Source: an uncultured Bacteroidota bacterium
GTDB taxonomy: Bacteria; Bacteroidota; Bacteroidia; Chitinophagales; LD1
Assembly: GCA_903917755.1 (NCBI GenBank)
Contig: CAIXBT010000361.1
Coordinates: forward strand, 1-53,855
Reading direction: 5' to 3'
DNA length: 53,855 nt
Every line of letters begins with the position of its first letter. Position 1 is the first letter of the stretch. Under the pieces are notes generated by a model. That model was not told the origin of the DNA, did not search any database, and saw only the letters and a list, made by a program, of their open reading frames with translations. Positions 16,003 to 47,384 of the stretch are shown one piece after another. Made by a program: the position numbers and the translations under genes.

Positions 16003-16021
16003 GTTCTACGTGGCACCGAAA
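16003..16021. repeat. palindromic-motif copy (GTTCTACGTGGCAC) within a 19-bp direct repeat, left copy
   Basis: gttctacgtggcaccgaaa, identical to 16643-16661. Intergenic, 17 nt upstream of the GNAT start. Confidence 0.9.
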
Positions 16022-16037
16022 AGGACCTTTTTAAATA

Positions 16038-16565
16038 ATGACGATGCTTAATTTAAGTTTCACACCCTTTCCTACTATTAAAACTGATAGACTTATTCTC
16101 AGAAGTCTGGAGAAAACTGATGCATACGATATACTGGCACTGCGCTCTGATGACAGGATCAATAAGCATGTGGATAGAAAGAAGATGCTGTCTATAGAAG
16201 AAGCAGAATTCTTTATCTACAAGATCAGGTCAGGAATAGAGAAAAATGAATTGATATATTGGGTTATTACCGATAAGCAGACTAATAAAATGCTTGGTAC
16301 CATTGGCGTTTGGAATGTAGAACCGGAAGAGGTTGCTGCAGAGTTGGGATATGAATTACTCTTTAAAGAACATGGCAAAGGCTATATGATAGAAGCTGTA
16401 AAGGGAGTGATAAAATACGGTTTTGAAACAATGAAATTAGAAACCATCAAAGCAGTGGTAAGAGATACTAATCTCGCTTCATTGAATATTCTGAATAAAA
16501 TGAAATTCGCGCTTGACAGAAGAGAAGGAGAAGATGGATTTTATACTTTGAGATCAGCTCAATAA
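16038..16565 (+). CDS. GNAT-family N-acetyltransferase (RimJ/RimL-like)
   Basis: 175-aa ORF with 'TDRLILRSLEKTDAYDILALRSD' and 'HGKGYMIEAVKGVIKYGF' (acetyl-CoA-binding region). Confidence 0.8.
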   Translation: MTMLNLSFTPFPTIKTDRLILRSLEKTDAYDILALRSDDRINKHVDRKKMLSIEEAEFFIYKIRSGIEKNELIYWVITDKQTNKMLGTIGVWNVEPEEVAAELGYELLFKEHGKGYMIEAVKGVIKYGFETMKLETIKAVVRDTNLASLNILNKMKFALDRREGEDGFYTLRSAQ

Positions 16566-17132
16566 TTTCTCTATCTCTTTCGGGTAATGCTCATGTTCCA
16601 GTTTGTGGACCTTGGCTGTGATAGTTTCTGTAGAATCTGAAGGTTCTACGTGGCACCGAAATTGGGCTATATACTCACCCTCATCATACTTTTCATTTAC
16701 ATAGTGGATGGTGATGCCTGTCTCTGTTTCTTTATTAGATAAAACAGTTTCATGGACCTTGCTGCCATACATACCCTTACCTCCGTATTTAGGTAGCAGA
16801 GCAGGATGTATGTTGATGATCTTGTTAGGATAGGCTTTGACCAGATATGCAGGAATCAATAGAAGAAAGCCGGCGAGAACGATCAGGTCTATCTGATACA
16901 ACTCCAGCAGGTCAAGTGTGGTTTCTTCTTCTTTTAGTTCTGCAGGCGATATAATGTCGAATGGTATTCTGTTGTCTTTGGCTATCTGAATGACACCGGC
17001 TGTCTTATTGTTGGTCACTATCAGGGCTACTTTAATGGCAGTATTACCTTTGAAGTGATCAATGATAGCCTGTGCATTGCTGCCACGGCCTGAGGCAAAG
17101 ATGGCGATGTGTTTGTGTGTGGAGTCTTTCAT
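16554..17132 (-). CDS. purN: phosphoribosylglycinamide formyltransferase
   Basis: 192-aa ORF with 'IAIFASGRGSNAQAII', 'IINIHPALLPKYGG' and 'GITIHYVNEKYDEG'. Its 3' end overlaps the convergent GNAT gene by 12 nt. Confidence 0.9.
   Translation of the reverse strand: MKDSTHKHIAIFASGRGSNAQAIIDHFKGNTAIKVALIVTNNKTAGVIQIAKDNRIPFDIISPAELKEEETTLDLLELYQIDLIVLAGFLLLIPAYLVKAYPNKIINIHPALLPKYGGKGMYGSKVHETVLSNKETETGITIHYVNEKYDEGEYIAQFRCHVEPSDSTETITAKVHKLEHEHYPKEIEKLLS
16643..16661. repeat. palindromic-motif copy within a 19-bp direct repeat, right copy (inside purN coding sequence)
   Basis: gttctacgtggcaccgaaa, exactly 640 bp from the left copy. On the minus strand it encodes F-R-C-H-V-E of PurN. Confidence 0.9.
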
Positions 17133-17177
17133 CTAGTGCTGCAAAGTAAAGCTATCAAAGACACATAAAAAAGGGAT

Positions 17178-17191
17178 GTTCTACATGGAAC
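17178..17191. repeat. palindromic-motif copy GTTCTACATGGAAC
   Basis: Intergenic, 46 nt upstream of the purN start and in the region upstream of the helicase gene. Confidence 0.85.
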
Positions 17192-17430
17192 GAAAACGCC
17201 CATTGTTGACGAAATGTAGATAACATTAGGAAATGTGGTTTATTATCCATAGTTTTGCGCCGCATTAGCAAAGCGAAGCCAAATTTCCTCTCGCGTATAC
17301 GACAAAGATCGTACATCATCATTAGGAAGTCAGGCTTTAATTGCCGACTTATTTTAATTAACGAAGTCACATACAGCCGCTCAAGCACCCAAAACACCCT
17401 TACAGAGGCGTGTCATGCTTGTATGTTGTA

Positions 17431-19452
17431 ATGGCTAAAAATCAACAAATGGAAAATTTTAAAGCCCTCGGGCTTAGCGACAATGTTCTTGAAGCATTGG
17501 CAAAGAAAGGTTGGGAAACCCCATCAGAAATTCAGGAAAAGACGATACCACTACTCCTCAAAGGAGAAAAAGATATCGTAGGCCAGGCTGCCACCGGCAC
17601 CGGCAAGACAGCGGCATTCGGATTGCCACTCATCGAGCAGCTGGATGATAATTCTAAAGCCGTGCAGGCGCTGATCATGTGTCCTACACGTGAGTTGGCT
17701 ATGCAGGTAGCTGAAGAGATCATGACATTCAAGGGCTCTAAGAGACTCTTTGTACAGCCTATCTATGGCGGACAGTCATACAATGTACAGATAGCTGCAC
17801 TGCGCAGAGGTGTGCAGATAGTGGTAGGTACACCGGGTCGTATCCGCGATCACATAGAGAAAGGAACTCTTAAGCTCAATGCGGTGACTCACGTAGTACT
17901 CGATGAGGCAGATGAGATGCTCAACATGGGTTTTGAAGAAGAAGTAAGAGAGATCCTGAAGAGTGTGCCTGAGAAAAGACGTATGCTTTTGTTCTCGGCT
18001 ACTATGCCTGCTCAGATATTGAGGCTGGCTAAGACCTTCATGAAAGATTATGATCTGGTAGAAGTAGAGAAGAAGCAGAACAGCACAGAGATGATCGATC
18101 AGTCGTACTTTGAGGTACGTGACAGCGACAGGTTTGTCACGCTTTGCAGAGTGATAGACACTGAACCGGAATTTTACGGTATCGTATTCTGTCGTACAAA
18201 GATGGAAACGGATGAGATAGCCAGCAAGCTTCTCGAAATGGGTTATGACTCGGAGGCGATACACGGTGATATCACACAGTCTCAGAGTGAGCTGATCCTA
18301 AAGAAATTCAAGATGCGCAAGATCAATATCCTCGTAGCTACTGACGTAGCCGCACGTGGTATAGATGTCAATGACCTCACACATGTCATCAACTTCAATC
18401 TGCCGCAAGACCCTGAGTCTTATATACACCGTATCGGTCGTACGGGCCGTGCCGGAAAGCACGGAACAGCGATCACTATCGTGAGCCCAAGAGAAAGGCG
18501 CGATCTGCAGTTTATTGAGAGACTGACCAAGGCACCTATCCGCAGGGAGACAGTACCATCTATCGCCGATGTAGTGGGCACAAAGACCATGAAGCTGAAA
18601 ACAGAAATGCAGTCAATGATCGAGAAGGGTCAGCATGAATTGTATCTGGACCTCGCTAAAGAACTGCTGGAAGACAATGCAGAACCGGAAGTAGTAGTAG
18701 CAGCATTGATGCGTTACTCTATGAAGGATACACTGGCAGAAGGCAGCTATCGTGAAATAGGACAAACACAATCCAGCGGCGGCAATGTGAATGCTAACAT
18801 AGCGAGACTATTCGTGGCTCGTGGTCATGAAGACAATATGAATGCAGGACAGATCGCACAGTTTCTGGCGAGTGAGACAGGAGTAGATGCGAATAATATC
18901 AATGACATCAGAGTGTTTGATAAATTCACTTTCATCACCGTATCTCCTGCGGATGCAGATATGATACTGGCCACTTTCTCTAAGGTGAAGGGCCGCAACA
19001 AACCATTAGTGACTCGCGCTAAAGAGAAACCGCAAGGTGGATTCGGTGGTGGAGGAAGCTTCGGCGGAGGCGGAAGAGGAAACTTCGAAAGAAGGGACAA
19101 CAATTCAAGACCAAGAGGCGGCGGTAACTTCAATGATGGCGGATTCAAGAGAAGGGAGGGTGACAGGACAGAGCGTCCTGCACGTCCTGAAGGCGAAAGG
19201 ACCGAGAGGCCTGCTCGCAAGGAATTCGTAGCATCTGAAAAACCAGCCGGAGAGAAGAAGTCTTACTTCAAAAAGGATGCACCTGCTACTGAAAAGGGTA
19301 CCAGTGAATTTATCCCTAAGAAAAGGGCAAACAAGATGACTGATTATCTTGAGAATGGCGATCCTGCGGTAAAACCTGCGGCACCAAAGAAAGAAAATCC
19401 AAGAAAAGAAAGTTTCAAGGTCGAGTTTAAAGACGATGATCTGAACTGGTAA
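17431..19452 (+). CDS. deaD: DEAD-box ATP-dependent RNA helicase (DeaD/CsdA-like) with DbpA-type RNA-binding domain and RGG-rich tail
   Basis: 'AATGTGKTAAFGLP', 'VLDEADEML', 'SAT' and 'HRIGRTGRAG'. The C-terminal tail is G/R-rich. The start may be ATG 17431 or 17449; the GTG at 17410 is less likely. Confidence 0.9.
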   Translation: MAKNQQMENFKALGLSDNVLEALAKKGWETPSEIQEKTIPLLLKGEKDIVGQAATGTGKTAAFGLPLIEQLDDNSKAVQALIMCPTRELAMQVAEEIMTFKGSKRLFVQPIYGGQSYNVQIAALRRGVQIVVGTPGRIRDHIEKGTLKLNAVTHVVLDEADEMLNMGFEEEVREILKSVPEKRRMLLFSATMPAQILRLAKTFMKDYDLVEVEKKQNSTEMIDQSYFEVRDSDRFVTLCRVIDTEPEFYGIVFCRTKMETDEIASKLLEMGYDSEAIHGDITQSQSELILKKFKMRKINILVATDVAARGIDVNDLTHVINFNLPQDPESYIHRIGRTGRAGKHGTAITIVSPRERRDLQFIERLTKAPIRRETVPSIADVVGTKTMKLKTEMQSMIEKGQHELYLDLAKELLEDNAEPEVVVAALMRYSMKDTLAEGSYREIGQTQSSGGNVNANIARLFVARGHEDNMNAGQIAQFLASETGVDANNINDIRVFDKFTFITVSPADADMILATFSKVKGRNKPLVTRAKEKPQGGFGGGGSFGGGGRGNFERRDNNSRPRGGGNFNDGGFKRREGDRTERPARPEGERTERPARKEFVASEKPAGEKKSYFKKDAPATEKGTSEFIPKKRANKMTDYLENGDPAVKPAAPKKENPRKESFKVEFKDDDLNW

Positions 19453-19499
19453 ATAATTGCGCAATATCGGTTTAGTCTGAGAAGCGTAACGGAATTGAG

Positions 19500-19531
19500 G
19501 GGAGCAGAATTTTCTGCTCCCTTTTTATTTT
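19500..19531 (+). terminator. rho-independent terminator after the helicase gene
   Basis: 9-bp stem gggagcaga/tctgctccc with loop attt, followed by tttttatttt. Confidence 0.7.
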
Positions 19532-19535
19532 AGGA

Positions 19536-19549
19536 ATTCTACGTGGAAC
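19536..19549. repeat. palindromic-motif copy ATTCTACGTGGAAC
   Basis: Lies between the convergent helicase and gldM ends, immediately after the terminator T-run and 2 nt from the gldM stop. Confidence 0.85.
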
Positions 19550-19550
19550 A

Positions 19551-21170
19551 TTAATTGTTAGTGATTGCTACAGCTATAGGAGAAAGTTGCCTCCTGTCGC
19601 CTTCGGGGCCTTTTGCTACTATATCTTCAAATACGACGGTACAGCCCTTTTTGATCTTGCCTTTATCCAGCATGTCTTTAAATTTTGAGTCATATCTAGG
19701 GCCGGTGCAAGTATATTTTGTAATACCATCAGGGAGTATGGCCACGATAGTATAGGATATAATGTCAAACCGGGCAGGAAATTCAAAGTTCTCAAGCTTT
19801 GGTACTATACCCGTCGTAGATTTAAATCTTGGTGCAGCCATATTTCCGCTTCCATATGTACCATCGAGAGTAGAAACAGGATCAGGCACACGTTTTACCC
19901 TAAACTCCATATCACCCATCGGCATTGTATTGCCACCTACTTTGGCTGAAACTCTTACTTTGTATTTACCCTTGCCGGAAGGTTTGACCATGTATGAACC
20001 ATCAGGTTTTCTATCTAATATCCCGGGCCCATCAAAGGAAGCCGTTACATCCCTTTGCGCTACACCAGGTACTGAAACGCTGATAGGATTATCAAGGCCG
20101 GCGTATAGTACATTCATATTAGTTGGAGATACGACAGCAGATTTTGCAGCCACCTGATATTCTCCTTCGAAGGGATAAAATTTATAGCCCGATCCGCTTG
20201 GGTCCTTTACGCGTATCACGCCGGTGTATTTGCTTTCGCCCACATTGTTTCCCTGCATTTGTATCTTGCCGAGACCATTTGATACATCTACTTTTTGTGG
20301 ATTATTAAGAGGAGGAATTTCTGTGGGCGATGATATTTCGTCATAATTGCCCGCCGCATTTTTCTTGACCTGTGCAGTGAAGGAACCAATGAATACATCA
20401 GGGTTCTGTGTGCTGCTATATGCAGTGAGCATCACATTAGCTTTGTACGGGAGGCCTTGCATGATATAGCTTGATGGTGAATTGACGAGAGCTGTCAGCC
20501 TGTCTACTTTGTGCTTGCCATAGTCTATTTTTTTGTAGAAATATTCCACTAGCTGGTTCTCTGCGGTCAATGCATCGTTCTGATATTTTGAAAGCAGCGT
20601 CACGGCGGCCACGGTTGGTACGTGATTGAACTTATGAAACTCCCAGCTCAGGCCATCTTTGGGTTCATCGATCAGTAAGGGTATGCTGCTTGTGAATTGA
20701 CCCTTATCCTCTTCGGCAGGTAATGCCAATAGCTGCTCGCGGCTTTTTTTGATGGCATCTTTTATTTTTTTGCCATGGCTCTCTTCTACGAATAACCTGG
20801 TGGCGATATCAATATTATCGTTGCTCACGAGCTGGCCGGACTGCGGGTCATAGCCACCTGCCTGTTTGATGACCTGCTGTTTATATTGTTCGAGCTGCTC
20901 ATATAGCGCCTTGCATATCTTTTGCGATTCTTCGGCTTTCAGTTTGAATGGTTCCGTCTTTTTTGCATCCATATTCATCTGCATCTGAAAGTCGCTGAAC
21001 AGGCTTGCATTCTTAGTGTCAAGAGATTGATTGGAGCGACCGATGCCATCGTCTACTGTCTTGAAAGCATTCAATACTTCTGCTGTCACATTCAGGGCGA
21101 GCATAGCAGTCAGGACCAGATACATCATGTTTATCATGCGCTGGCGGGGAGGTAGTTTGGTAGATGCCAT
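19551..21170 (-). CDS. gldM: GldM/PorM-family type IX secretion / gliding motility protein (not in a gldKLMN operon)
   Basis: 539-aa ORF with the N-terminus 'KLPPRQRMINMMYLVLTAMLALNV', the hallmark GldM start plus single TM helix, followed by a long periplasmic region. Confidence 0.8.
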   Translation of the reverse strand: MASTKLPPRQRMINMMYLVLTAMLALNVTAEVLNAFKTVDDGIGRSNQSLDTKNASLFSDFQMQMNMDAKKTEPFKLKAEESQKICKALYEQLEQYKQQVIKQAGGYDPQSGQLVSNDNIDIATRLFVEESHGKKIKDAIKKSREQLLALPAEEDKGQFTSSIPLLIDEPKDGLSWEFHKFNHVPTVAAVTLLSKYQNDALTAENQLVEYFYKKIDYGKHKVDRLTALVNSPSSYIMQGLPYKANVMLTAYSSTQNPDVFIGSFTAQVKKNAAGNYDEISSPTEIPPLNNPQKVDVSNGLGKIQMQGNNVGESKYTGVIRVKDPSGSGYKFYPFEGEYQVAAKSAVVSPTNMNVLYAGLDNPISVSVPGVAQRDVTASFDGPGILDRKPDGSYMVKPSGKGKYKVRVSAKVGGNTMPMGDMEFRVKRVPDPVSTLDGTYGSGNMAAPRFKSTTGIVPKLENFEFPARFDIISYTIVAILPDGITKYTCTGPRYDSKFKDMLDKGKIKKGCTVVFEDIVAKGPEGDRRQLSPIAVAITNN

Positions 21171-21467
21171 TGTGTTAGGATTTAGAGTGGTGAAAAGTTA
21201 TAATCCTGTAACGCGGCATCATTCAAAAAGTAACATTTCTAAAAAAGGAGTGCTGATAATGAATGAAGAAAAAGACAAATAACAATCAGAAAAATGTTAT
21301 TCCGTTAAATAAGTTCGGTGTGTGCCATAAAGCATTAGTTATAATGTTTCCCGACATTGAAGACCTGTTTAGAGCCGCTATTCACCTATTTGTTATGCAA
21401 AACCGTCATTTTATGTCTTAAAAGGCTTGGTTTAAAGCGTATTTAATGTGAAATATCCTTTACATTT

Positions 21468-21475
21468 TTATCTTT
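21468..21475 (+). promoter_or_regulatory. putative Bacteroidota -7 promoter element (TATCTTTG) for hppA
   Basis: Matches TAnnTTTG 39 nt upstream of the hppA ATG. The evidence is the motif match only. Confidence 0.3.
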
Positions 21476-21513
21476 GCCGACCAATAAAAAACTAAAAATT
21501 AGAAAAAATTATC

Positions 21514-23802: not shown

Positions 23803-23827
23803 AAATTGAGATAATAATATTTTGAAA

Positions 23828-23860
23828 GGCCGAGGGTTGTACTCTCGGCCTTTTTTATTT
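23828..23860 (+). terminator. rho-independent terminator after hppA
   Basis: Hairpin ggccgagggttgtactctcggcc followed by ttttttatttt. Confidence 0.7.
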
Positions 23861-23866
23861 TCGGTA

Positions 23867-23880
23867 GTTCCACATGGAAC
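23867..23880. repeat. palindromic-motif copy GTTCCACATGGAAC
   Basis: Intergenic, 6 nt after the hppA terminator T-run and 69 nt upstream of the next gene. Confidence 0.85.
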
Positions 23881-28592: not shown

Positions 28593-29822
28593 ATGCCAAA
28601 CACACAAAAAACCGATGCTTTTGCTTCCCTCAGGATACCGGAATTCAGGGCATACCTATTCGCCCGGTCGCTGACCACGATCGCCCTGCTCATGCAGAGC
28701 ACCGTATTGGCATGGCATATCTATCAGATTACACACAATAAACTGGCACTTGGGCTTATCGGATTGAGTGAAGCGCTGCCATTTATTTTTACCACATTTT
28801 TCTCGGGGCTGGCAGCCGACAGGTATAACAGAAAGCGGATACTGCTCTTGTTCACTACATTTCTGATCGTTTGTTCAGCTACCTTATCTGTAGGGTCATG
28901 GCAGTTTGGGGCCAATACCAGTGTGTTTTGGTATTATATCGTGATCGGAATGATAGGTGTGTGCAGGTCTTTTGTCACACCGGCATCACAGGCCATTCAG
29001 TCACGTATCGTGCCGAGAGAACTGTATGCGAATAGTTCCACGTGGAGCAGCAATTCCTTTCAGGTCAGCGCCGTGGTAGGGCCTGTGGTAGCAGGACTTT
29101 TGCTGGAGGTTATCGCACCCGGATTCATTTATCTGATCTGTGCTGCATTCTTCAGTTTGTCTTTATATTTTACGACCAAGCTGGATGAACACTATCCTCC
29201 ACCTATGCAGGGCAAAGAACCTTTTGTTCGTTCATTCTTCGGCGGGATAAGATTTGTATTCGGGACGGAGGCCATCTTATCTTCCATCTCGCTGGATCTG
29301 TTTGCGGTTTTGTTTGGCGGTGTCACGGGACTTGTACCCGCTTTCTGTCAGGATATCCTTCATGTAGGACCTACACTGATGGGATTGCTGAAAGCATCTC
29401 TATTTCTTGGTTCTGCAGTGGCGGGTTTTATCCTTGCCCATCATCCACCCACTCGACATGCGGGCCGCAATCTGCTGATCTGTGTGGGAGGTTTTGGTTT
29501 ATGTATAATAGTTTTTGCTGTGTCACCTTTTTACTGGCTGAGCTTTTTGATGCTGTTTATGGCAGGAGCTTTTGACAATGTCAGTGTGATCATCAGAGGC
29601 ACGATCATTCAAATGTTCACACCTGATGAGATGCGCGGCAGAGTTGCAGCAGTCAATTCTATTTTTATCAAATCATCTAATGAAATAGGAGACTTCGAGT
29701 CGGGTCTGGCAGCTTCATATATGGGCCTTGAGTATGCGGTTATTTTCGGTGGTGTGATGACATTGCTGGTGGTAGGCGGTACTGCTTTGTTTGCACCCGC
29801 ATTGAGGAGGATGAAGCTCTAA
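28593..29822 (+). CDS. MFS transporter (MFS_3/EntS-like)
   Basis: 409-aa, about 12-TM protein with 'GLAADRYNRKRILL' (an MFS loop 2-3 motif). Confidence 0.8.
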   Translation: MPNTQKTDAFASLRIPEFRAYLFARSLTTIALLMQSTVLAWHIYQITHNKLALGLIGLSEALPFIFTTFFSGLAADRYNRKRILLLFTTFLIVCSATLSVGSWQFGANTSVFWYYIVIGMIGVCRSFVTPASQAIQSRIVPRELYANSSTWSSNSFQVSAVVGPVVAGLLLEVIAPGFIYLICAAFFSLSLYFTTKLDEHYPPPMQGKEPFVRSFFGGIRFVFGTEAILSSISLDLFAVLFGGVTGLVPAFCQDILHVGPTLMGLLKASLFLGSAVAGFILAHHPPTRHAGRNLLICVGGFGLCIIVFAVSPFYWLSFLMLFMAGAFDNVSVIIRGTIIQMFTPDEMRGRVAAVNSIFIKSSNEIGDFESGLAASYMGLEYAVIFGGVMTLLVVGGTALFAPALRRMKL

Positions 29823-31175: not shown

Positions 31176-32408
31176 TTACAATGTCACGATCAGTGTCTGG
31201 CCTATCTTCAGGTCTTCATCTATCAGACCATTGATCCTCTTGAGGGTGTCGAGAGGTATATTGTATTGTTTGGAAATGGAATAGAGCGTTTCGCAAGTGC
31301 TCACCTTATGCATTTTCAGATCAGGGAGCGGAGTTGTTTCGGCAGATGTTTTGCTGGGATATATTTTTCCGGTGACGCGAAATTTCAGGGGAAATTCCCT
31401 TTTTCCACGTAGAACAATTATTTCTCCTGCTACCGGCTCACAGCCGCCTATGATCCCATTTCGAATGATAAGCTCCGATAGCTTGATCCCGAATTTCTGA
31501 GAGATATCGCGCATGGTCTCACCGTCCGAGACTTCATATTGATAGTATTGAGACTCTTGTTTTTTGCTTTCGACATAGATCAGTTCGTTGTCTTTGAATT
31601 TCTCATTCGGCAGCATATCGTTAAATGAATATAACTGCTGAACGGTCACGTTATATTTCTGCGCAATGAATGCTATGGGCACTTCTTTTTTGTACACGAG
31701 AGCTTTGGTGCCGTTTATAATTTTTTCTTCTGCAGTATATTTCGAAAAATCAAGACATCTGTCTACAGGCGTACTTGTTTTTATTTCAGATACAGGAACC
31801 GATACTTTGGTAGTGGCCGCCTGAGATTGGATCAATGACTGTTTGATCATTTGTATCTCGGCATTGTCTTTAGGCTCGACCTTAGCTACGATAACTGTCT
31901 GTCCGACCAGTTTGTCATATTGACTCAGGTTGTAATCTTCTATGAGTTTTATGATGATCTCCGGATATTTAGGATTAGTGGCATAGCCGGCAGCTTTCAG
32001 CCCTCTGGCCCATGCTCTATAGTCGCCACGCTCCAATGTGAAGAGTGTAGAATAACGTGACCTTGTTTTCAGAAATTCAGAGTGATCCCTGAATGATTCT
32101 TCCGGACAGTTATATACACGGAAACACTCCTGCGGCTGATCGTCATCGTGGTGATATGTCTGTCCGCACCATTCTTCATGGCATTTGATCCCGAAATGAT
32201 TGTTTGAATTCAATGCCAGTTTGGAATAGCCGCATCCTGACTCGTGTATGCCCTGTGCGAGCGTGACGCTGGCAGGTATGCCATATGCTTTCATTTCTTC
32301 GATGGCAATAGCCTTATATCGCTCCACATAGGCAGAGACAGCCTGAGGCGACTGCGCCTGAGTGGCAGAAATAAACAGAGCCAATAATGCTGAAAACAAT
32401 AAACGCAT
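31176..32408 (-). CDS. glucosaminidase-domain peptidoglycan hydrolase with LysM repeats
   Basis: Signal peptide, 'YGIPASVTLAQGIHESGCGYSKLALNSNNHFGIKC' (PF01832-like), and three LysM-like C-terminal repeats ('HKVSTCETLYSISKQYNIPLDTLKRINGL'). Confidence 0.8.
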   Translation of the reverse strand: MRLLFSALLALFISATQAQSPQAVSAYVERYKAIAIEEMKAYGIPASVTLAQGIHESGCGYSKLALNSNNHFGIKCHEEWCGQTYHHDDDQPQECFRVYNCPEESFRDHSEFLKTRSRYSTLFTLERGDYRAWARGLKAAGYATNPKYPEIIIKLIEDYNLSQYDKLVGQTVIVAKVEPKDNAEIQMIKQSLIQSQAATTKVSVPVSEIKTSTPVDRCLDFSKYTAEEKIINGTKALVYKKEVPIAFIAQKYNVTVQQLYSFNDMLPNEKFKDNELIYVESKKQESQYYQYEVSDGETMRDISQKFGIKLSELIIRNGIIGGCEPVAGEIIVLRGKREFPLKFRVTGKIYPSKTSAETTPLPDLKMHKVSTCETLYSISKQYNIPLDTLKRINGLIDEDLKIGQTLIVTL

Positions 32409-35186: not shown

Positions 35187-36452
35187 TTATTCTATTTGTA
35201 TTTTTCTTGTTATGGGAAACACTGTATTATCCTTTAGGTTTACTTTCAGGATATATATTCCCGGGGTCAGTCCTTGCAGTGGTATAGATGCATTTTTACC
35301 ACTTAGGTTGAGTTGATCTACTTCTCTGCCGGTGTAGTCATATAGAGTAGCTGATGATAGTTCATTTCCGTCTTCGACAGCTATCCGGATATGATCTGAA
35401 GCGGGAATAGGATAGATATTCAATTGGGCATTTTCTGCTATGGTTTTAATGTCCAAAGGTTGATTGCAATGGCCGGCTGCCTGTACGCAATTCACTGAAT
35501 AAAAAAAGGCGGCAACAGCAGAATCCATTCTGTTTTCGATCACCACGTTTGTATCCCATGGTACATGACCTGAGCCCGGAAATGGCAGCAATGAATATCT
35601 TACTCCTACTGAATCTAATTTTGGCGCCATACCACCCGATCCGCAGAAGTTTATGGTAGGATAGAGACCGAGCGTATATTGTGTCAATGCTAATCCGCAT
35701 TCGTATGGAACGGTACCATCGGCTGTGCCCTGACACAAAACCATCGGTGGTGCTCCGGGTTTGATCCAGTCTATGGTATTGACCGCTCCGGCCAGACTTG
35801 CCACCCCGATCACTTTGGTGGAGTAGCCTGCATTGCCGCTATTGCCATCTATACCGCCATTGCTGGTGGCTATCGTTTGAAAGGCTGGTGCCAATTGACT
35901 CAAACTATCTAATGTAGCAGCAAAATCTACCGCAATGCCACCTGCAGAACTACCGCCTATGAAGATGGCATTGGTATCTATATTCCAGTGGTTGGTCAGC
36001 GATGCATCTTTGTAGAAATAACGAATAGCTGCTTTGAGATCTGAGTAAGCCTCATAGGCATATTTAAAGATCTGTGCAGAATCATACAGAGCGACAATCG
36101 ATGAGGCAAGCCGGTAGTTGATAGTGGCACATACATATCCTCTTCTGCCGAATCTTTCGCTCAGAAACTGCACATCACCGTCGTTTTTGGTGCCCTGAAA
36201 GAAAGCACCACCATGTAGCCAGATGATCAGGTGCCTCAGACAGGCAGTATCTCCTGTGGGTTGGTATATATCCATCAACTCAGTGGTCGAGCCTCCGGCA
36301 GTGGTAGTATAAACTATGTTTGAGAATGAGTCTACAGATAGAAAGATGGTGTCAAGGTATCTGTTAGAACATTGTGCTCTTGCAGTATGAAACAGGGAGA
36401 GTGTGAATAGTAAACAAAATGCAAAACCAAGCTTGTATAATTTTGATCGCAT
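35187..36452 (-). CDS. secreted alpha/beta-hydrolase (carboxylesterase) with T9SS C-terminal sorting domain
   Basis: Signal peptide, 'IIWLHGGAFFQG' oxyanion motif and 'GGSSAGG' nucleophile elbow. The C-terminal region 'LNIYPIPASDHIRI...GIYILKVNL' resembles a Por_Secre_tail domain. Confidence 0.7.
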   Translation of the reverse strand: MRSKLYKLGFAFCLLFTLSLFHTARAQCSNRYLDTIFLSVDSFSNIVYTTTAGGSTTELMDIYQPTGDTACLRHLIIWLHGGAFFQGTKNDGDVQFLSERFGRRGYVCATINYRLASSIVALYDSAQIFKYAYEAYSDLKAAIRYFYKDASLTNHWNIDTNAIFIGGSSAGGIAVDFAATLDSLSQLAPAFQTIATSNGGIDGNSGNAGYSTKVIGVASLAGAVNTIDWIKPGAPPMVLCQGTADGTVPYECGLALTQYTLGLYPTINFCGSGGMAPKLDSVGVRYSLLPFPGSGHVPWDTNVVIENRMDSAVAAFFYSVNCVQAAGHCNQPLDIKTIAENAQLNIYPIPASDHIRIAVEDGNELSSATLYDYTGREVDQLNLSGKNASIPLQGLTPGIYILKVNLKDNTVFPITRKIQIE

Positions 36453-36621
36453 GATGAAATGTTTTGTTGTTAGCTTTCCGAATGTAAAGATTTTATTTCT
36501 TTTAAATATATGGATAATGGCTCATTTTCGATGTTTAACAATTTCATAATGAGGATATTTACTTTATTCATTTAAATCCATAACTTTATTTGAATATTTT
36601 ATTAAAACCATATTACCAAAA

Positions 36622-37773
36622 ATGAAGAAAGTCTACTCGTTTCTTTTAGCGATTCTCCTTACGCTTAGTTCATTTGCACAATACAGTACCAATAGTTTTA
36701 CGTTCGGCGGTGTGACCAGACAATATCTATTGTATATCCCTACATCTTATGATGGAACCAAGAATGTGCCTTTTGTATTAGCACTGCATGGACTGGGTGA
36801 CAATATGAATAATTTTGCGGGAGTGAATTTTAATTCTGTAGCAGATACAGCAGATTTTATTTTTGCTATCCCTCAGGCTTTGGTAGATAATGTAGTAACA
36901 GGTTCTACAGCCTGGAATAGCGGTGCAGGCGCATTTGGAATTACACTGAATCCCAATGTGGATGATGTGGGTTTTCTCAATGCCCTTATCGATACTGTTT
37001 CCGCTCATTATATGATCGACTCAACGCGTCTGTACTCTACCGGATTTTCAATGGGAGGATTTATGACGAATAGATTAGGCTGCGAATTGAATAACAGGAT
37101 CGCTGCTATTGCTTCTGTATCCGGCACTATAGGCAGCGGTATCACTTGCAATCCAACCAGAGTAGTACCTTCCTGCCACTTTCATGGCACAGCAGATCAG
37201 ACAGTAGCCTATACAGGAGATATGTATGGTTCGGATGCAGAGGCTCTGGTCGCCTTTTGGCGTGGTCATGATCGCTGCGATACAGTGGCATCTTCTATCG
37301 ACACTTTGCCACACATCTCGAGCGATAGTCTTCATGTAGTACACTATGTATATCCTCATGGCGCTTACAATTCTGATGTAGAATTTTATAAAGTCCTCAA
37401 TGGCCAGCACCAGTGGCTCGGACCTACAGGAGAGGATATCAATTATGCAGTTGCGATCTGGAATTTTTTCAACAGATATCAGTGGGTGCCACAAACGCCT
37501 AGCAGTATAATAGCTGTAAGCTCTGATCTGGGAATCAGTGTTTATCCAAATCCTGCATCTTCATCTATATTTCTGAACGTTCCACGTGGAGCAAGTGATC
37601 TGAAAGAGATCGTGATAAGAGATATATCCGGCAGAGTTGTTTATTCTGATGTACCATCTAATGCAGGCAATGATATGAGCATAGATGTGAAAGCATTCGC
37701 CAGAGGAATGTATATGGTGCAGATCAGAATGAATGAGCAATGGGTAAACAAGAAAGTCTGTTTGACAGATTGA
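36622..37773 (+). CDS. secreted esterase (PHB-depolymerase/LpqC-like) with T9SS C-terminal sorting domain
   Basis: Signal peptide, 'FVLALHGLGD', 'GFSMGG' nucleophile elbow and 'HGTADQTV'. The C-terminal region 'ISVYPNPASSSIFLNV...GMYMVQI' is a CTD. Confidence 0.7.
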   Translation: MKKVYSFLLAILLTLSSFAQYSTNSFTFGGVTRQYLLYIPTSYDGTKNVPFVLALHGLGDNMNNFAGVNFNSVADTADFIFAIPQALVDNVVTGSTAWNSGAGAFGITLNPNVDDVGFLNALIDTVSAHYMIDSTRLYSTGFSMGGFMTNRLGCELNNRIAAIASVSGTIGSGITCNPTRVVPSCHFHGTADQTVAYTGDMYGSDAEALVAFWRGHDRCDTVASSIDTLPHISSDSLHVVHYVYPHGAYNSDVEFYKVLNGQHQWLGPTGEDINYAVAIWNFFNRYQWVPQTPSSIIAVSSDLGISVYPNPASSSIFLNVPRGASDLKEIVIRDISGRVVYSDVPSNAGNDMSIDVKAFARGMYMVQIRMNEQWVNKKVCLTD

Positions 37774-37774
37774 T

Positions 37775-41437: not shown

Positions 41438-41450
41438 ATACAACGAATTG

Positions 41451-41474
41451 CGTTTGTTCCACGTGGAACAAACG
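41451..41474. repeat. perfect 24-bp palindrome CGTTTGTTCCACGTGGAACAAACG (motif copy)
   Basis: Read directly; it is its own reverse complement. Lies 64 nt upstream of the mnmG start. Confidence 0.95.
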
Positions 41475-41553
41475 GGCTATAGGTTTAAAATTGCACGCCC
41501 TATGGTTTGAAACGCAAAATCCTTGAACTTATACCCAGTTGTCTTAAATCCTC

Positions 41554-41573
41554 TTTGTTCCACGTGGAACAAA
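41554..41573. repeat. perfect 20-bp palindrome TTTGTTCCACGTGGAACAAA (motif copy)
   Basis: Read directly. Its centre is 101 bp from the centre of the first palindrome. Confidence 0.95.
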
Positions 41574-41889
41574 TTTTATGAATAGGGGTCTGTGGAGTCA
41601 AAACCCTTGCTATATCTATGTAAAAGAGCTTTATGAACAAATCCACAAACCTTTAAAGAACAGCTTGTGAAGAAAATAGTCCAAAGGCAAGAATTGGAGC
41701 GGCTTTATAATATTTATCAGATAACCAATGTGCATCTGAAAGCTAGATTAATATTAGATGATCCTGCTTTTTGAACAAATCAACAATAGCTAAAGGCACA
41801 GGTGGTGGAGAAATAATCGAGAGTTTGAAAGTGTCAGGGATAAATCAAAAAATTGAGTTGTATCTTTGAATGCGATCAAGAGCAATTTT

Positions 41890-42720: not shown

Positions 42721-42725
42721 TACAA

Positions 42726-44585
42726 TCATCTGATGCCATCCAGCCAGGCCTTTCTGATGCGTAGTTGCTCCGGGTCAGCTGAAGTTCGAAACTCAATGGT
42801 ATTATAAAACCGGACATCAGACCTGAACACTTTGGCCTTAAGAACCTTTTTGGCAGATTTGCCTTCCGGAGATTTGCGGTAAACGGTTATTTTGATCTGA
42901 TCTCCTTCCTTTACATTTTTCATCCATTGCTGCCGGAACATTCTGAATTCCATAAGGCCGATCTTTTTGCCGTTTATTTTATCTATCTCATCGCCTTTCT
43001 GATAGCCTAATGCCTTGCCGAATTCATTCATGTTTTTCGTGCCGGTCACCATCATCCTGCCCGTGGTGGGATTATAGCCCAGATCACACTGCCCGAAAGA
43101 AAAAGACCGGACCTTATCAATTCGGGTGTAATCAACACCGGCATAATCGAGCACTTCTTCGAAAGGAAGTTTTTTGCCACCCATCACATAGTCATCAAAG
43201 AAAGTTTTGATCTCAGGATAGGTCAGAGATACGATCTTTGGTATCAATTCATCATCCTTGAATGCTTTGTCTTTGCCATAAGATTTGGCCAGATCTTTAA
43301 TGAGTTCCATGAGGCCGTATTTGCCATTTGAAAGATGAAGAAGTTTCAGGTCAAGGCACATGGATATCAAAGCACCTTTTGAGTAGACATTGTTGTACTG
43401 ATCTTTGAATGTATCCAGACAGCCTTTGCTGAGCTCGGTGAAAGACAAAGAATCGTTGAATCCGAACATGGCCTCGTTCATTTTCTGCTTGATCACATCC
43501 AGAAACTTATTTTGCGAAATGAGACCGTAGCGCACCTGAACCACATGTGCATGATATTCTGTAGAGCCTTCATAAAGCCAGAGGTGTTCGCTCATTTTAG
43601 GATGATCAAAATCAAAATCTGCGATCTCTATTGAGTGAATATTGAGTGGGGTGACGATATGAAAAAACTCATGTGAGGCCACATCCCTGATGGTGGGTGC
43701 TATAGCAGCATCGGTCCCATCTACGAGAAAATACATGGAACAATAAGAATGCTCCAATGCTCCGAATCCACCGGATAGCCCCTCATGGTCCGACAGATAG
43801 ATGAGGAAGGAATAATTTTTGACAGGAAGTTTGCCTCCCAGATATTTGCCCTGATCCTGTAGCAGGGTGTCAAGCTGTATAGCTATGCCTTTTGCGGTGG
43901 CTCTTTTAGAAGGAGAATAAACGGAAATCAGAATATCGCTTTCACCGACCTTGATGTGGGCCGTATCGGGGCGATTGTACATGATCGGATTGTCTACAGC
44001 CTCATTGTAACTGCTGATCAGATAGCTGTCTTTTGTATTGCTGTGATCTCTATCGGTCAGAGATGTGCTGCCATAGAAAGCAGACTGATGAGTGACATTG
44101 AGTTCGTATGGCTGCTTGGTATGGTTTCTGAAATATCCCAGTATCGAATGCAGATTCAACACAAAACAGGTATCGGGCTCAAAGTCTGTTCCGGCAGGTT
44201 CAAAGATCGGATTGCTTCTCTTTTTCGGATGAAAAGTATCATTGACCTTATAAATGATCTTAGCCAGTTTTTGGCTGTTTTCGATCTCCCAGCTGTTATT
44301 GTCCAGACGTGTCACAGCCAGAGAATTTCCATTGACATCCATAGCTTTAAAATCTTCTACAAATCGTCCGAAATCATAGATCGAATAGGTGCCCGGCACG
44401 ATCTTAGGCAGGCTGAATATTATTTTGTCTTCAGAGAGTTGCGGTGGAATTAGTTCCACGTACAACTTTTTGTCAGCCATCTTGGTGAGGTCTATGGCAT
44501 AGTGATAAGTATTGTCCAGAGAAAATGCAATACAAAAAGCAAATAAACAGCATAATAAAAGTGACATTTTTTTCATATGCGACAC
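42726..44585 (-). CDS. M61-family (glycyl aminopeptidase-like) metallopeptidase with C-terminal PDZ domain
   Basis: 619-aa ORF with a signal peptide, the zinc motif 'SHEFFH', 'EGSTEYH' and a C-terminal PDZ-like 'LGYQKGDEIDKINGKKI'. Confidence 0.8.
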   Translation of the reverse strand: MSHMKKMSLLLCCLFAFCIAFSLDNTYHYAIDLTKMADKKLYVELIPPQLSEDKIIFSLPKIVPGTYSIYDFGRFVEDFKAMDVNGNSLAVTRLDNNSWEIENSQKLAKIIYKVNDTFHPKKRSNPIFEPAGTDFEPDTCFVLNLHSILGYFRNHTKQPYELNVTHQSAFYGSTSLTDRDHSNTKDSYLISSYNEAVDNPIMYNRPDTAHIKVGESDILISVYSPSKRATAKGIAIQLDTLLQDQGKYLGGKLPVKNYSFLIYLSDHEGLSGGFGALEHSYCSMYFLVDGTDAAIAPTIRDVASHEFFHIVTPLNIHSIEIADFDFDHPKMSEHLWLYEGSTEYHAHVVQVRYGLISQNKFLDVIKQKMNEAMFGFNDSLSFTELSKGCLDTFKDQYNNVYSKGALISMCLDLKLLHLSNGKYGLMELIKDLAKSYGKDKAFKDDELIPKIVSLTYPEIKTFFDDYVMGGKKLPFEEVLDYAGVDYTRIDKVRSFSFGQCDLGYNPTTGRMMVTGTKNMNEFGKALGYQKGDEIDKINGKKIGLMEFRMFRQQWMKNVKEGDQIKITVYRKSPEGKSAKKVLKAKVFRSDVRFYNTIEFRTSADPEQLRIRKAWLDGIR

Positions 44586-44622
44586 GATTGGTTTGAATAT
44601 ATAGAGAAAGAAAAAGGATTTT

Positions 44623-45558
44623 CTACAGTTTTTTCAGTTTATCCCAGAGGTCAGGGAGCATTTTAACGATGGCAAACTGTCTCGCCGCCCGGTGTATCTC
44701 ATCTGCCGGAGTGCCCAGATAGGTTTTGCCGCCTTCGAGAGATTTAGCAGAGGCAGAGCTGCCGAGCAGGATGGCGCGATCGCCCACAGAGATATTTTTG
44801 CTCAAAGCAGATTTGCCATACAGCGTCACAAAATTTCCCACACGTACATTTCCCGCTATGCCCACTTGTGCACAGATGATACAATGTTCGCCTATGGTGC
44901 TGTCATGCCCGATGTGAACCTGACTGTCCAGTTTGGTGCCACGACCTATCACCGTATCTGCAGACACGCCGGCATCTATCGTGCAGCCGCTTCCGATCTC
45001 TACATCATCGTGTATCAGCACACGACCTGCCGTGTGCATTTTGTCATAATGGGTACCACGACCTTTGTAGTAGAATGCGTCGCCACCGATGGTCGAATTG
45101 CCATGAATGATCACATTGTCGCCGAGTACGGTGTATGGATAGATCGTTACGTTAGGATAGATGATGCAGTTTTTGCCGATCACCACATTCTCGCCTATAT
45201 AGGCATTCGGATGGACCATCGTGCCTGTGCCGATCCGGGCGCTGGCTGCTACCGAAGAGCGGGAGAATAGCGTGGGTTGGAGCACGGTGGCCAGTGCATT
45301 GTATGCGATGAAAGGATCGACATTATACAGCAGGGTTTTGCCGGCGGGCGGATCAATTTTTTGATTGATAAAAATAAAAGTGGCGGCAGATGACAGCGCT
45401 AGTGAATAATATTTCGGATGATCTACGAATGTGATATCACCTTCGCTTACATTGTGAATTTCATTGAGTCCTGTCACTGATCCCGCAGCATCGCCGATGA
45501 TCTCAGAGTTCGTTTGTAGCGCTATGTCCCTGAGCGGGATGGGCTGTGGAAACTTCAT
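44623..45558 (-). CDS. lpxD: UDP-3-O-acylglucosamine N-acyltransferase
   Basis: Start set at the internal Met ('MKFPQPIPLRDIA'). The N-terminal LpxD domain is followed by hexapeptide repeats ('GENVVIGKNCIIYPNVTIY', 'IGHDSTIGEHCII'). Confidence 0.85.
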   Translation of the reverse strand: MKFPQPIPLRDIALQTNSEIIGDAAGSVTGLNEIHNVSEGDITFVDHPKYYSLALSSAATFIFINQKIDPPAGKTLLYNVDPFIAYNALATVLQPTLFSRSSVAASARIGTGTMVHPNAYIGENVVIGKNCIIYPNVTIYPYTVLGDNVIIHGNSTIGGDAFYYKGRGTHYDKMHTAGRVLIHDDVEIGSGCTIDAGVSADTVIGRGTKLDSQVHIGHDSTIGEHCIICAQVGIAGNVRVGNFVTLYGKSALSKNISVGDRAILLGSSASAKSLEGGKTYLGTPADEIHRAARQFAIVKMLPDLWDKLKKL

Positions 45559-45660
45559 ACTGCAATAATGATGAGGGGGCAATTTAGTTAGAAAATCTAA
45601 TATACACGAAAGCTTAGAATTAAGAGACAATTGATATCTTGCTAATGCTAAAAACAAGAT

Positions 45661-45891
45661 GTGAAAAAGCTAATCTTCGGGTTGTTTAGCTTATCGGTTG
45701 GGATGTTTCTGTTCTATTGTTATAGCGCAACCAATATCTTTTCTTATACATTTCTGCTGCTTGGATTGTACTATATTTTATTGGGAGTAAGAAAGCTCCA
45801 AAGTAATGATGTAATAGTAACTAGCGGAACGGAAAAGTCTTTGGCAGAAGAGAGCTTACAAAGATTGGATCAAAGTAAAAGTAGATTATGA
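45661..45891 (+). CDS. hypothetical small membrane protein (GTG start)
   Basis: 76-aa ORF with two hydrophobic helices followed by a polar tail. No recognisable family. Confidence 0.4.
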   Translation: MKKLIFGLFSLSVGMFLFYCYSATNIFSYTFLLLGLYYILLGVRKLQSNDVIVTSGTEKSLAEESLQRLDQSKSRL

Positions 45892-45898
45892 AAAGTGT

Positions 45899-46222
45899 GT
45901 GTTAAAGGACTATGGATATAGTTTTGAGAGAGAAGCAGAGACGGGGCGGGTGGCTGCCATGAATGTATTGAGCGGAGATGAAATGAGCAATGTAGAAATA
46001 ATAAAAGCCAACCAATTATTGCTTGAGTATCCATACAGAAAAACAGAATCATCGGGCGAAACAATTTTTCAAATTTCCTTGTATGATATAGACAAAGGTA
46101 GCTTCTCAATGCGTTTCATAGCGGGTGATATTTTTCTTTATATAGATCAGACGAATTGTGAAAATTGTATTCTTGATCTGGGAGACAAGCGGGTAAGAGG
46201 TTTTAGAAAAAAGCAATCATAA
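45899..46222 (+). CDS. hypothetical protein (GTG start)
   Basis: 107-aa ORF that follows the previous small ORF after 7 nt. No recognisable family. Confidence 0.35.
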
Positions 46223-46263
46223 ATTCAAATCCAAATCTTACATTTGACATCTCAAATATAAAA

Positions 46264-47340
46264 ATGAAAAACACAGCACTCACACACATTCACCAGGCAC
46301 TCGGAGCCAAGATGGCAGAGTTCGCAGGCTACAATATGCCGATCTCTTATTCAGGTATCAACTCAGAGCACAATCAGGTGCGCAATAGTGTGGGTGTGTT
46401 TGACGTGTCGCATATGGGCGAATTTATGCTGCGCGGCCCCAAGGCACTCGATCTGATACAGCTCGTCACCACCAATGATGCCTCCAAACTGACCGATGGC
46501 AAGATCCAATATTCATGCCTCCCGAACGATCAGGGCGGCATAGTAGATGACCTGCTCGTATATCGTCAGAATGCGAATGAATATTACCTCGTGGTCAATG
46601 CTTCAAACATAGACAAAGACTGGGACTGGATCAGCAAGCACAATACCGAAGGCGTGGAGATGAAAAATATGAGCGATGATACGAGTCTGCTAGCTGTGCA
46701 GGGACCGAACGCTATCAAAGTGCTTCAAAAGCTCACAGATGTGGACCTGAGCACAATACCATATTATGCCTTCACCGTAGGTACACTCGCAGGCATATCT
46801 CAGGTCATCATTTCAAATACAGGATATACCGGTGCAGGAGGATTCGAACTCTATGTGCCCAATGCAGAAGTAGAAAAACTATGGTATGCCATATTTGAAG
46901 CGGGCAAGGAATATGGAATACTCCCTACGGGGCTGGCATGCCGTGACACACTGCGTCTGGAGAAGGCATTCTGCCTCTATGGTCACGATATCGATGACAC
47001 GACATCTCCGATAGAAGCGGGCTTGGGCTGGATCACCAAATTTACGAAGCCTTTCGTACATTCAGATTACCACAAACAGCTCAAAGAGACCGGCGCGAGC
47101 AAAAAACTCGTAGGCCTCGAAATGATAGACCGCGGCATACCACGTCAGCACTATAAGATCAAAGATGCAGCTGGCAATGAGATCGGCGAGATCACCTCAG
47201 GTACACACTCTCCGACACTCAATAAAGCGATCGGTATGGGCTATGTGAAAACCGAATTTTCTCCGATAGGCACAGAGGTATATCTCGACATCCGCAATAG
47301 CCTCGTCAAAGCAAAAGTGGTGAAGACACCGTTTCTGTGA
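46264..47340 (+). CDS. gcvT: glycine cleavage system aminomethyltransferase T
   Basis: 358-aa ORF with '[12 protein letters not shown]', '[12 protein letters not shown]', '[14 protein letters not shown]' and '[18 protein letters not shown]'. Confidence 0.95.
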
Positions 47341-47370
47341 TATTAGAATAGGCTCCACTAGCATAGCTCC

Positions 47371-47384
47371 GTTCCACATGGCAT
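47371..47384. repeat. palindromic-motif copy GTTCCACATGGCAT (one mismatch)
   Basis: Intergenic, 31 nt downstream of the gcvT stop. Confidence 0.7.

Follow-up and report, generated by a model that had tools for sequence, protein, structure and literature searches.

The palindrome that recurs 12 times in the 53,855-nt stretch of uncultured Bacteroidota DNA analysed here (the window) is very probably parS, the chromosomal centromere site at which ParB loads. A tandem pair of these predicted parS sites directly upstream of mnmG/gidA is a landmark widely conserved across Bacteroidota orders. An apparently unknown motif is thus resolved into a known one, and its value is mostly practical: it shows where the replication origin and centromere probably lie in the genome of an uncultured, Chitinophagales-like member of the Bacteroidota, which bears on the orientation of MAGs, the calling of ori and the interpretation of Hi-C data. 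No new mechanism is revealed. The cluster of 12 copies, though real, is a feature of an ordinary kind, and the 12-site array and the phylum-wide pair upstream of gidA are of modest interest. The sites are listed here, together with the putative oriC, which is given as context and lies outside the repeat family.

14750..15346, unstranded, putative oriC; gcvH-psd intergenic gap, proposed from skew and DnaA-box-like 9-mers
16003..16016, unstranded, weak parS-like site GTTCTACGTGGCAC; intergenic between psd and a GNAT gene; 2 mismatches to the 14-mer palindrome
16643..16656, unstranded, weak parS-like site GTTCTACGTGGCAC; inside purN; minus-strand reading R-C-H-V-E-P
17178..17191, unstranded, parS-like site GTTCTACATGGAAC; intergenic between purN and deaD; 2 mismatches
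19536..19549, unstranded, parS-like site ATTCTACGTGGAAC; between convergent deaD and gldM; 2 mismatches; terminator hairpin 19497-19524 ends 12 nt before
23867..23880, unstranded, parS-like site GTTCCACATGGAAC; intergenic, past the H+-PPase gene; 1 mismatch; terminator hairpin 23824-23854 ends 13 nt before
29035..29048, unstranded, parS-like site GTTCCACGTGGAGC; inside the MFS transporter gene; 1 mismatch; reads S-S-T-W-S
31402..31415, unstranded, parS-like site TTTCCACGTAGAAC; inside the glucosaminidase-LysM gene; 2 mismatches; minus-strand reading V-L-R-G-K
37579..37592, unstranded, parS-like site GTTCCACGTGGAGC; inside the T9SS esterase gene; 1 mismatch
41455..41470, unstranded, perfect 16-bp candidate parS TGTTCCACGTGGAACA; start codon of gidA/mnmG 68 bp downstream
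41556..41571, unstranded, perfect 16-bp candidate parS TGTTCCACGTGGAACA; second member of the gidA-upstream tandem pair, spaced 101 bp from the other
44453..44466, unstranded, parS-like site GTTCCACGTACAAC; 5' part of the M61 peptidase gene; 2 mismatches; minus-strand reading L-Y-V-E-L
47371..47384, unstranded, weakest parS-like site GTTCCACATGGCAT; intergenic, past gcvT; 3 mismatches; one half-site, GTTCCAC, intact

Identity of the repeated palindrome

With their flanking T and A, the two best copies (41455-41470 and 41556-41571) form the 16-bp palindrome TGTTCCACGTGGAACA, and both, lying upstream of gidA, belong to the TGTTNCACGTGAAACA family of 16-bp palindromes. An earlier note on this DNA knew of no bacterial box with the consensus; once the flanks are included, the sequence is the documented parS TGTTCCACGTGGAACA, given as a ParB site of Pseudomonas aeruginosa (PMC7022226 Table 1). 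One base separates it from the parS of Myxococcus xanthus, TGTTCCACGTGGAACG (PMC7022226 Table 1), and GTTCCAC is a recognised ParB half-site (PMC7022226). The suggestion that the palindrome serves a dimeric DNA-binding protein agrees with this match, which makes ParB the probable partner.

Neither ParB, ParA nor DnaA was found by Pfam among the 48 ORFs of the window. Regular-expression searches of six-frame translations for ParB box II (GERRxRA, ENLQR-like) gave no match in the window or in 80 related loci, the Pfam search being confined to the window. Because there is no ParB gene in the window, we infer ParB binding at its sites and assume the cognate protein.

Number, extent and surroundings of the copies

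The 12 copies, first picked out by eye, were all recovered in a scan of the window allowing up to 2 mismatches to the consensus GTTCYACRTGGMAC (12 positions, 23 strand-matches), against a chance mean of 1.44; the copy number therefore exceeds the compositional expectation. Six positions match GTTCYACRTGGMAC exactly (16003, 16643, 17178, 23867, 41456 and 41557), whereas 100 dinucleotide shuffles yielded no exact match. A search for the perfect palindrome GTTCCACGTGGAAC that tolerated up to 3 mismatches returned the same 12 positions and no others (chance mean 1.08, maximum 3). Measured against the 16-bp palindrome, six copies differ at 3-5 positions. All 12 fall within 16.0–47.4 kb, an interval of ~31 kb with sharp edges on one side of the putative oriC. 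Positions 1-16002 and 47385-53855, which together make up ~22.5 kb, contain no copy even when 3 mismatches are allowed.

Seven of the 12 copies are intergenic in a window that is 9.8% non-coding (binomial P = 4.4e-5), in line with the enrichment between genes noticed earlier. The five in-gene copies occupy different frames and strands, and the genes neighbouring the motif copies are functionally unrelated. Copies were also said to follow terminator T-runs, which is strictly true of two sites, 19536 and 23867, located 12-13 nt past strong predicted hairpins; 16003 has the T-run only. An AGGAA-like left flank shared by some copies did not hold up when the flanks were compared: information content is near zero outside the 14-mer and at background level directly outside the 14-16 bp core. 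The identical 15-mer reported in the MFS and esterase genes, GTTCCACGTGGAGCA, is present in both, and a 19-mer, GTTCTACGTGGCACCGAAA, is common to the copies at 16003 and 16643. Rfam and tRNA scans of the window gave no matches, so no RNA explanation arises.

Conservation in related Bacteroidota

For comparison we used 80 related Bacteroidota loci (1.39 Mb), in which the relatives are seen as pieces of ~20 kb. The nearest, uncultured Chitinophagales and "Bacteroidetes bacterium" MAGs, have a GidA at most 85-86% identical to that of the window. The motif was recovered among these relatives as well, with 119 sites in the 1.39 Mb, 105 of them (88%) no more than 500 bp upstream of gidA/mnmG and 14 elsewhere. 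At least one site lies within this distance of gidA in 51 of the 80 loci and at least two sites in 43; outside the gidA slot the motif occurs at a background of 0.10 per 10 kb. In the window, this same slot contains the two perfect copies, and many genomes carry the pair upstream of gidA at a distance of 30-350 bp. Mean column identity in the alignment of the gidA-upstream region (alignment A1) is 34%, and its conserved blocks are the motif copies.

The slot in relatives holds GTTCCACGTGGAAC, GTTCCACGTGAAAC or GTTTCACGTGAAAC, with continuous grading into the canonical GTTTCACGTGAAAC. The variants CTAC, CACATG and GGCAC, known from degenerate copies in the window, are found there in near relatives (L004-L010), which argues that all the copies form one site family. 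Clusters of several sites are also seen in the nearest relatives, with 8 sites in 21.9 kb of L001 and 7 sites in 20.3 kb of L011.

Individual copies could be followed into L001. The copy in the LysM gene (31402) is found there as GTTCTACGTGGAAC, with alignment column and frame unchanged, while the esterase copy (37579) is kept in another frame, where it encodes an unrelated peptide. The M61 copy (44453) has no counterpart at the same position in L001, where the nearby site lies at the lpxD-M61 junction. Site positions turn over among the window, L001 and L011. Since in-gene copies stand at orthologous places in L001 even where frame and peptide differ, the constraint is on the DNA. The gidA pair, the LysM-gene site and the esterase-gene site are conserved as DNA whatever the coding context, and the earlier suggestion that the motif acts on DNA is borne out by in-gene copies held at the DNA, not the protein, level in the nearest relative.

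This distribution bears on two other explanations of a short palindrome. It is extremely unlikely that the copies represent a short repeat over-represented across the genome, be it an iterated palindrome of the HIP1 type, a DNA uptake sequence or a REP/MITE core. The motif is indeed short, palindromic, present in many copies and sometimes placed beside terminators, but the remaining 22.5 kb of the window contain none at 3 mismatches and the relatives hold just 14 outside the gidA slot in 1.39 Mb. Flank information content at background leaves no longer repeat unit. REP, BIME and MITE elements were rejected, as the flanks share nothing and five copies lie inside genes. A HIP1-like or uptake-signal role, which the earlier note had entertained, was likewise set aside: in place of a uniform high density, copies are tightly clustered in the window, and in relatives 88% fall in one 500-bp slot upstream of gidA. 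The probability that the sites are targets of a restriction-modification system or orphan methyltransferase recognising CACGTG/CACATG is negligible. Type II systems do recognise palindromic cores of this sort; however, the window shows no enrichment of the CACGTG hexamer (16 strand-counts, mean 13.4), the conserved stretch of 14-16 bp is far longer than a hexamer target, and such a system would explain neither why the copies cluster nor why they are conserved across the phylum at gidA.

Proximity to a putative replication origin

The gcvH-psd gap is a putative oriC. Skew and DnaA boxes with 1 mismatch are the sole basis for this call, and there is no dnaA close by. The cumulative G-C minimum lies at 15730, and the parS cluster begins 270 bp away. 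DnaA-box-like 9-mers are concentrated in this region, with 8 of the window's 17 falling within 14.8-17.3 kb. In the gap itself such 9-mers lie at 14863, 15030, 15088 and 15134, followed at ~15180-15300 by AT-rich sequence; from the box cluster at 14.86-15.13 kb to the first parS-like site is ~0.9 kb. The gap upstream of psd in L011 contains 5 DnaA-box-like 9-mers, one of them perfect, and aligns to the gap in the window with conserved blocks. gidA is a classic ori-linked gene. As is typical of parS, the copies are clustered in what would be an origin-proximal domain, the oriC being proposed from sequence: within the window and the 20-kb pieces of relatives, 12 of 12 copies fall in 16.0-47.4 kb and 105 of 119 upstream of gidA, respectively.

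A palindrome with a CACGTG core might alternatively be the operator of a dimeric transcription factor regulating gidA and nearby genes. Such a role would suit the intergenic enrichment and the conserved pair that many genomes carry 30-350 bp ahead of gidA, yet we consider it very unlikely. Five copies are deep within coding regions, two others follow terminators at places where genes end convergently or in tandem and a promoter is unexpected, and the adjoining genes have no functional relation. Moreover, the sequence is identical to parS established experimentally in other phyla (PMC7022226), and within the window the copies are confined to a single origin-proximal stretch.

A possible one-sided array

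If the sites are parS, ParB dimers encoded elsewhere in the genome would use their helix-turn-helix domains to bind TGTTCCACGTGGAACA, after which they would form closed, CTP-dependent sliding clamps and spread along adjacent DNA. ParA would pull apart the resulting nucleoprotein complexes beside the replication origin, and the ParB-DNA complex would load SMC condensin, leading to segregation of newly replicated origins. The clamp, ParA and SMC steps are taken from established knowledge of ParABS; to our knowledge, ParABS and SMC loading are essentially unstudied in Bacteroidota.

In the window, the ancestral tandem pair upstream of gidA/mnmG, represented by the two perfect sites, would have been joined by ten weaker variants to form a one-sided array of ~31 kb whose start is only some hundreds of bases away from the putative oriC. 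In its full form, this proposal is that an ancestral Bacteroidota parS pair expanded here into a one-sided 31-kb array of 12 sites of graded affinity, that the array starts at an oriC unlinked to dnaA, and that individual sites are under selection even in genes and just past terminators. We put the chances of the full proposal at somewhat short of even. Provided that all 12 sites function, the array would be the first extended multi-site centromere to be described from the Bacteroidota. We infer, rather than observe, how many of the weak variants function.

A narrower version of the parS reading, in which only the strong copies work (the perfect pair and perhaps the four that deviate from the 16-mer at 2 positions) and the weaker ones are decaying relics or half-site matches, is possible but rather unlikely. 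Six of the 12 copies carry 3-5 mismatches to the 16-mer, and ParB binding elsewhere is much weaker at imperfect sites and half-sites (PMC7022226), so some of them may be non-functional; the turnover of positions between the window, L001 and L011 is consistent with this as well. Against it, 14-mers with 2 mismatches occur far above chance (6 observed, roughly 0.2 expected), and going to 3 mismatches adds only 47371 in the window. The same weak variants also fill the gidA-upstream slot in relatives, and the LysM-gene copy, with 2 mismatches, is position-conserved in L001.

Comparison with known parS systems

The closest match in sequence is P. aeruginosa, with the consensus TGTTCCACGtGGAACa, half-sites GTTCCAC/GTTTCAC and 9 listed sites, 4 of them in the ori domain (PMC7022226 Table 1). 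Its 16-bp palindrome is the same as in the window, including the C/G variant at positions 5 and 12, and both have an ori-proximal set of a few perfect and a series of imperfect sites. P. aeruginosa belongs to another phylum, however, and in the window the 12 sites all lie to one side of the putative origin, packed within 31 kb, without an adjacent parAB operon.

M. xanthus has 22 parS sites, TGTTCCACGTGGAACG, all in the ori domain (PMC7022226). Here too there is a large multi-copy array in the origin domain with a near-identical variant consensus, but M. xanthus has about twice as many sites, and the copies in the window are more degenerate, with parAB outside the 54-kb window. The Myxococcus array adjoins parAB.

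Corynebacterium glutamicum and Bacillus subtilis each have 10 parS sites, TGTTNCACGTGAAACA, of which the ori domain contains all 10 and 8, respectively; these sites are points of ParB nucleation and SMC loading (PMC7022226). Several ori-proximal sites, some within genes, are common to these species and the window, whereas their half-site is the canonical one containing A/T.

Within the same phylum, a Hi-C study of gut Bacteroidota (Bacteroides caecimuris and Muribaculum) reported ParABS homologues, 1-10 parS sites per genome of canonical consensus, and parS clusters at the GC-skew flip that mark an origin which need not adjoin dnaA (PMC10197239). The coincidence of parS clusters with the skew flip is the same as in the window; the tandem pair upstream of gidA and the 12-site array, in contrast, are not described there.

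Scanned with the canonical TGTTTCACGTGAAACA at up to 2 mismatches, the window would yield just the two perfect copies of its 12, and we give TGTTCYACRTGGMACA as a clade-specific parS matrix. Should the 12-site array be real as proposed, scans with the canonical consensus would undercount parS in this clade.

Distribution and structure of the palindromic repeat

The motif cluster is a real and strongly non-random feature of the window. Scanning with GTTCYACRTGGMAC at up to 2 mismatches exactly reproduced the coordinates of the 12 copies in the earlier note (shuffle mean 1.44 strand-matches). Exact GTTCYACRTGGMAC is present at 16003, 16643, 17178, 23867, 41456 and 41557 (n = 6; copies are named by their start coordinates) and did not occur in 100 dinucleotide-preserving shuffles. 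At up to 3 mismatches, the perfect palindrome GTTCCACGTGGAAC recovered the identical 12 positions and nothing further (chance mean 1.08), leaving both the 16 kb on the left of the cluster and the 6.5 kb on its right free of copies. The family is thus sharply set apart from background and limited, within the window, to 16,003-47,384. The enrichment between genes proposed previously also holds: 7 of the 12 copies are intergenic, and non-coding sequence makes up 9.8% of the window (P = 4.4e-5).

Information content is high over 14 positions and falls to background level beyond, except at the directly adjacent position on either side, where T/A is weakly preferred; an AGGAA-like flank, previously described for some intergenic copies, is therefore not conserved. 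No extended similarity was found between the flanks of the copies, so no longer unit of the MITE or REP type contains them. The remaining five copies lie in the following coding sequences:

purN
MFS transporter gene
glucosaminidase-LysM gene
T9SS esterase gene
M61 peptidase gene

The peptides encoded at these copies (RCHVEP, SSTWS, VLRGK, VPRGA and LYVEL) are unrelated, and strands and frames differ, indicating that the repeat is a feature of the DNA and not of the proteins. Of the placement after terminators suggested in the earlier note, the cases of 19536 and 23867 stood, these copies being 12-13 nt past strong predicted terminator hairpins.

Predicted intrinsic terminators beside copies (12- and 14-bp stems, T-tails)
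19497-19549, terminator together with copy 19536
23824-23880, terminator together with copy 23867

One might speculate that siting just past a terminator could guard bound ParB from read-through transcription. The weak GTTCTACGTGGCAC copies at 16003-16021 (intergenic) and 16643-16661 (inside purN) share an identical 19-mer, GTTCTACGTGGCACCGAAA, their identity running 5 nt past the motif on one side only. A recent duplication or conversion is possible, as is chance.

Identity of the repeat as parS

The two best copies, upstream of gidA/mnmG (41455-41470 and 41556-41571), read TGTTCCACGTGGAACA, a perfect 16-bp palindrome. The general consensus of parS, the centromere site bound by ParB, is TGTTNCACGTGAAACA, with TGTTCCACGtGGAACa in P. 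aeruginosa and TGTTCCACGTGGAACG in M. xanthus (PMC7022226). The motif, which the earlier note could match to no bacterial regulator box, is identical in sequence to established parS (PMC7022226). As far as sequence can tell, it agrees with parS in every respect, and the copies are very probably ParB-binding sites. The feature is an origin-proximal parS cluster, an instance of a well-known system; ParABS homologues were present in 12 of 12 genomes in a Hi-C study of gut bacteria including Bacteroidota (PMC10197239).

Ori-domain sites number 10 in C. glutamicum, 8 of 10 in B. subtilis, all 22 in M. xanthus and 4 of 9 in P. aeruginosa, which also has GTTCCAC/GTTTCAC half-sites (PMC7022226). An array of 12 sites in 31 kb is large against the species in Table 1 of that paper, which is of modest interest, as is the fact that a scan with the canonical consensus would detect only two of the 12.

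A palindrome of this kind could also be a transcription-factor operator, but this is unlikely: there are copies within genes and copies between the ends of genes, the neighboring genes are unrelated, and the sequence is that of parS as established by experiment. A restriction-modification target is likewise unlikely: the window shows no enrichment of CACGTG itself, and conservation covers 14-16 bp.

Conservation in related genomes

Species-representative genomes were scanned with the window GidA, giving 80 Bacteroidota loci (L001-L080) centered on gidA/mnmG. The nearest are from uncultured "Bacteroidetes bacterium" and Chitinophagales MAGs, with GidA identity at most 85-86%; next come Saprospiraceae, Cyclobacteriaceae, Fulvivirga, Arcicella and Emticicia. 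The motif is found directly upstream of gidA in these loci, mostly as a tandem pair, the upstream sequences forming a gradient from GTTCCACGTGGAAC through GTTCCACGTGAAAC to GTTTCACGTGAAAC. When sites were scored against GTTNCACGTGNAAC (at most 1 mismatch), the slot of 500 bp upstream of gidA (about 9500-10000 in full-length loci) held at least one site in 51 of 80 loci and at least two in 43 of 80, with a median spacing of 47.5 bp. This slot accounts for 105 of the 119 sites in 1.39 Mb of related sequence; density elsewhere is 0.10 per 10 kb. Across nine genomes, mean column identity of the upstream alignment is 34%, and the conserved blocks are the motif copies. The CTAC, CACATG and GGCAC variants, which make the window consensus degenerate, occur in the same slot in the near relatives L004-L010 and so belong to one functional family. 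A phylum-wide pair upstream of mnmG/gidA is of modest interest; we found no published account of this pair or of multi-site arrays in Bacteroidota, within incomplete literature coverage.

We also considered a dispersed repeat (HIP1-like, uptake sequence or REP/MITE), which is contradicted by the tight clustering and the absence of a longer unit. The clustering, in the window and in the gidA slot of relatives, speaks against the HIP1-like and uptake-signal options of the earlier note.

Multi-site clusters are present in the nearest relatives, L001 having 8 sites within 21.9 kb and L011 having 7 within 20.3 kb, and more distant taxa have the pair only, within ±10 kb around gidA. The pair is spread over many families, sometimes as 3-5 tandem sites; in L004 and L006 it is replaced by mini-arrays of 4-5 copies, of which most read GTTCCATGTGGAAC. 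Most Saprospiraceae loci are without the pair, and five Arcicella loci (L052, L054, L056, L061, L070) have a single variant, ACTCCACGTGGAAC, at about 9524-9539, ~470 bp upstream of gidA, with no close tandem pair.

Between lpxD and hpt, L001, the nearest relative, has the same gene order as the window, and it keeps the gidA pair. The LysM-gene copy matches in alignment column and in frame between the two genomes. The esterase-gene copy (window 37579-37592, L001 13745-13758) has hardly moved, from alignment column 324 in the window to 321 in L001, but the frames differ and the local peptides, NVPRGA and LHVET respectively, are unrelated. Its retention shows directly that the DNA sequence of the sites is under selection, a DNA-level constraint here overriding the protein sequence. 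Other sites turn over: the window M61-gene site, for instance, has as its L001 counterpart a site where lpxD and the M61 gene meet.

Collinearity with L001 is broken by a gene for a BD-FAE-type esterase that ends in a T9SS sorting tail (35187-36452); L001 lacks it, and it may be an insertion. Beside it, at 36350-36600, AT content reaches its highest value in the window, about 76%. In the matching intergenic position of L001 there is a parS-like site (14855), where the window has none.

Gene context and putative origin of replication

Pfam searches of 48 window ORFs identified ordinary chromosomal housekeeping genes of Bacteroidota type, including paaABCD, rbfA, gcvH, psd, purN, deaD, gldM, H+-PPase, hpt, msrA, gidA/mnmG, lpxD, gcvT and T9SS sorting-domain proteins. 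No ParA, ParB or DnaA was found among these ORFs, no tRNA or Rfam family in the window, and a ParB box-II motif search of six-frame translations gave no ParB gene in the 80 fetched loci.

GC skew switches sign at ~16 kb (cumulative G-C minimum at 15,730). Eight of the window's 17 DnaA-box-like 9-mers (at most 1 mismatch) lie between 14.8 and 17.3 kb, and the ~600-bp gcvH-psd gap holds four together with an AT-rich stretch. Left of this point every gene is on the minus strand. In L011, where psd is also near gidA, a 473-bp gap upstream of psd (17913-18386) contains five, one of them a perfect TGTGGATAA, and aligns with the gcvH-psd gap in conserved blocks. These features suggest that oriC likely lies at about 14.75-15.35 kb (14750-15346), not adjacent to dnaA; in the Hi-C study, origins were placed by parS clusters and skew flip and need not adjoin dnaA (PMC10197239). 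Given this putative oriC, the cluster would stretch 31 kb along one replichore, starting ~0.9 kb from the DnaA-box-like cluster and ~0.65 kb from the gap end.

Support in the sequence data comes from identity with parS, clustering, proximity to the putative oriC, conservation and DNA-level constraint. By what is established for ParABS systems, dimers of ParB would nucleate at the palindromes, form closed CTP-dependent clamps and slide to flanking DNA, and ParA would segregate the complex, which would also load SMC. Primary nucleation would likely take place at the two perfect sites upstream of gidA; at the ten weaker copies, which have 2-5 mismatches to the 16-mer, it is probably graded and of lower affinity, over ~31 kb.

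At gcvH, two long antisense ORFs, 14369-14890 (minus strand) and 14379-14894 (plus strand), overlap completely, and Pfam recognizes only the minus-strand one, as glycine cleavage H protein. The true start of the minus-strand ORF is likely the internal MNFPAELKY, and the plus-strand ORF is probably spurious.
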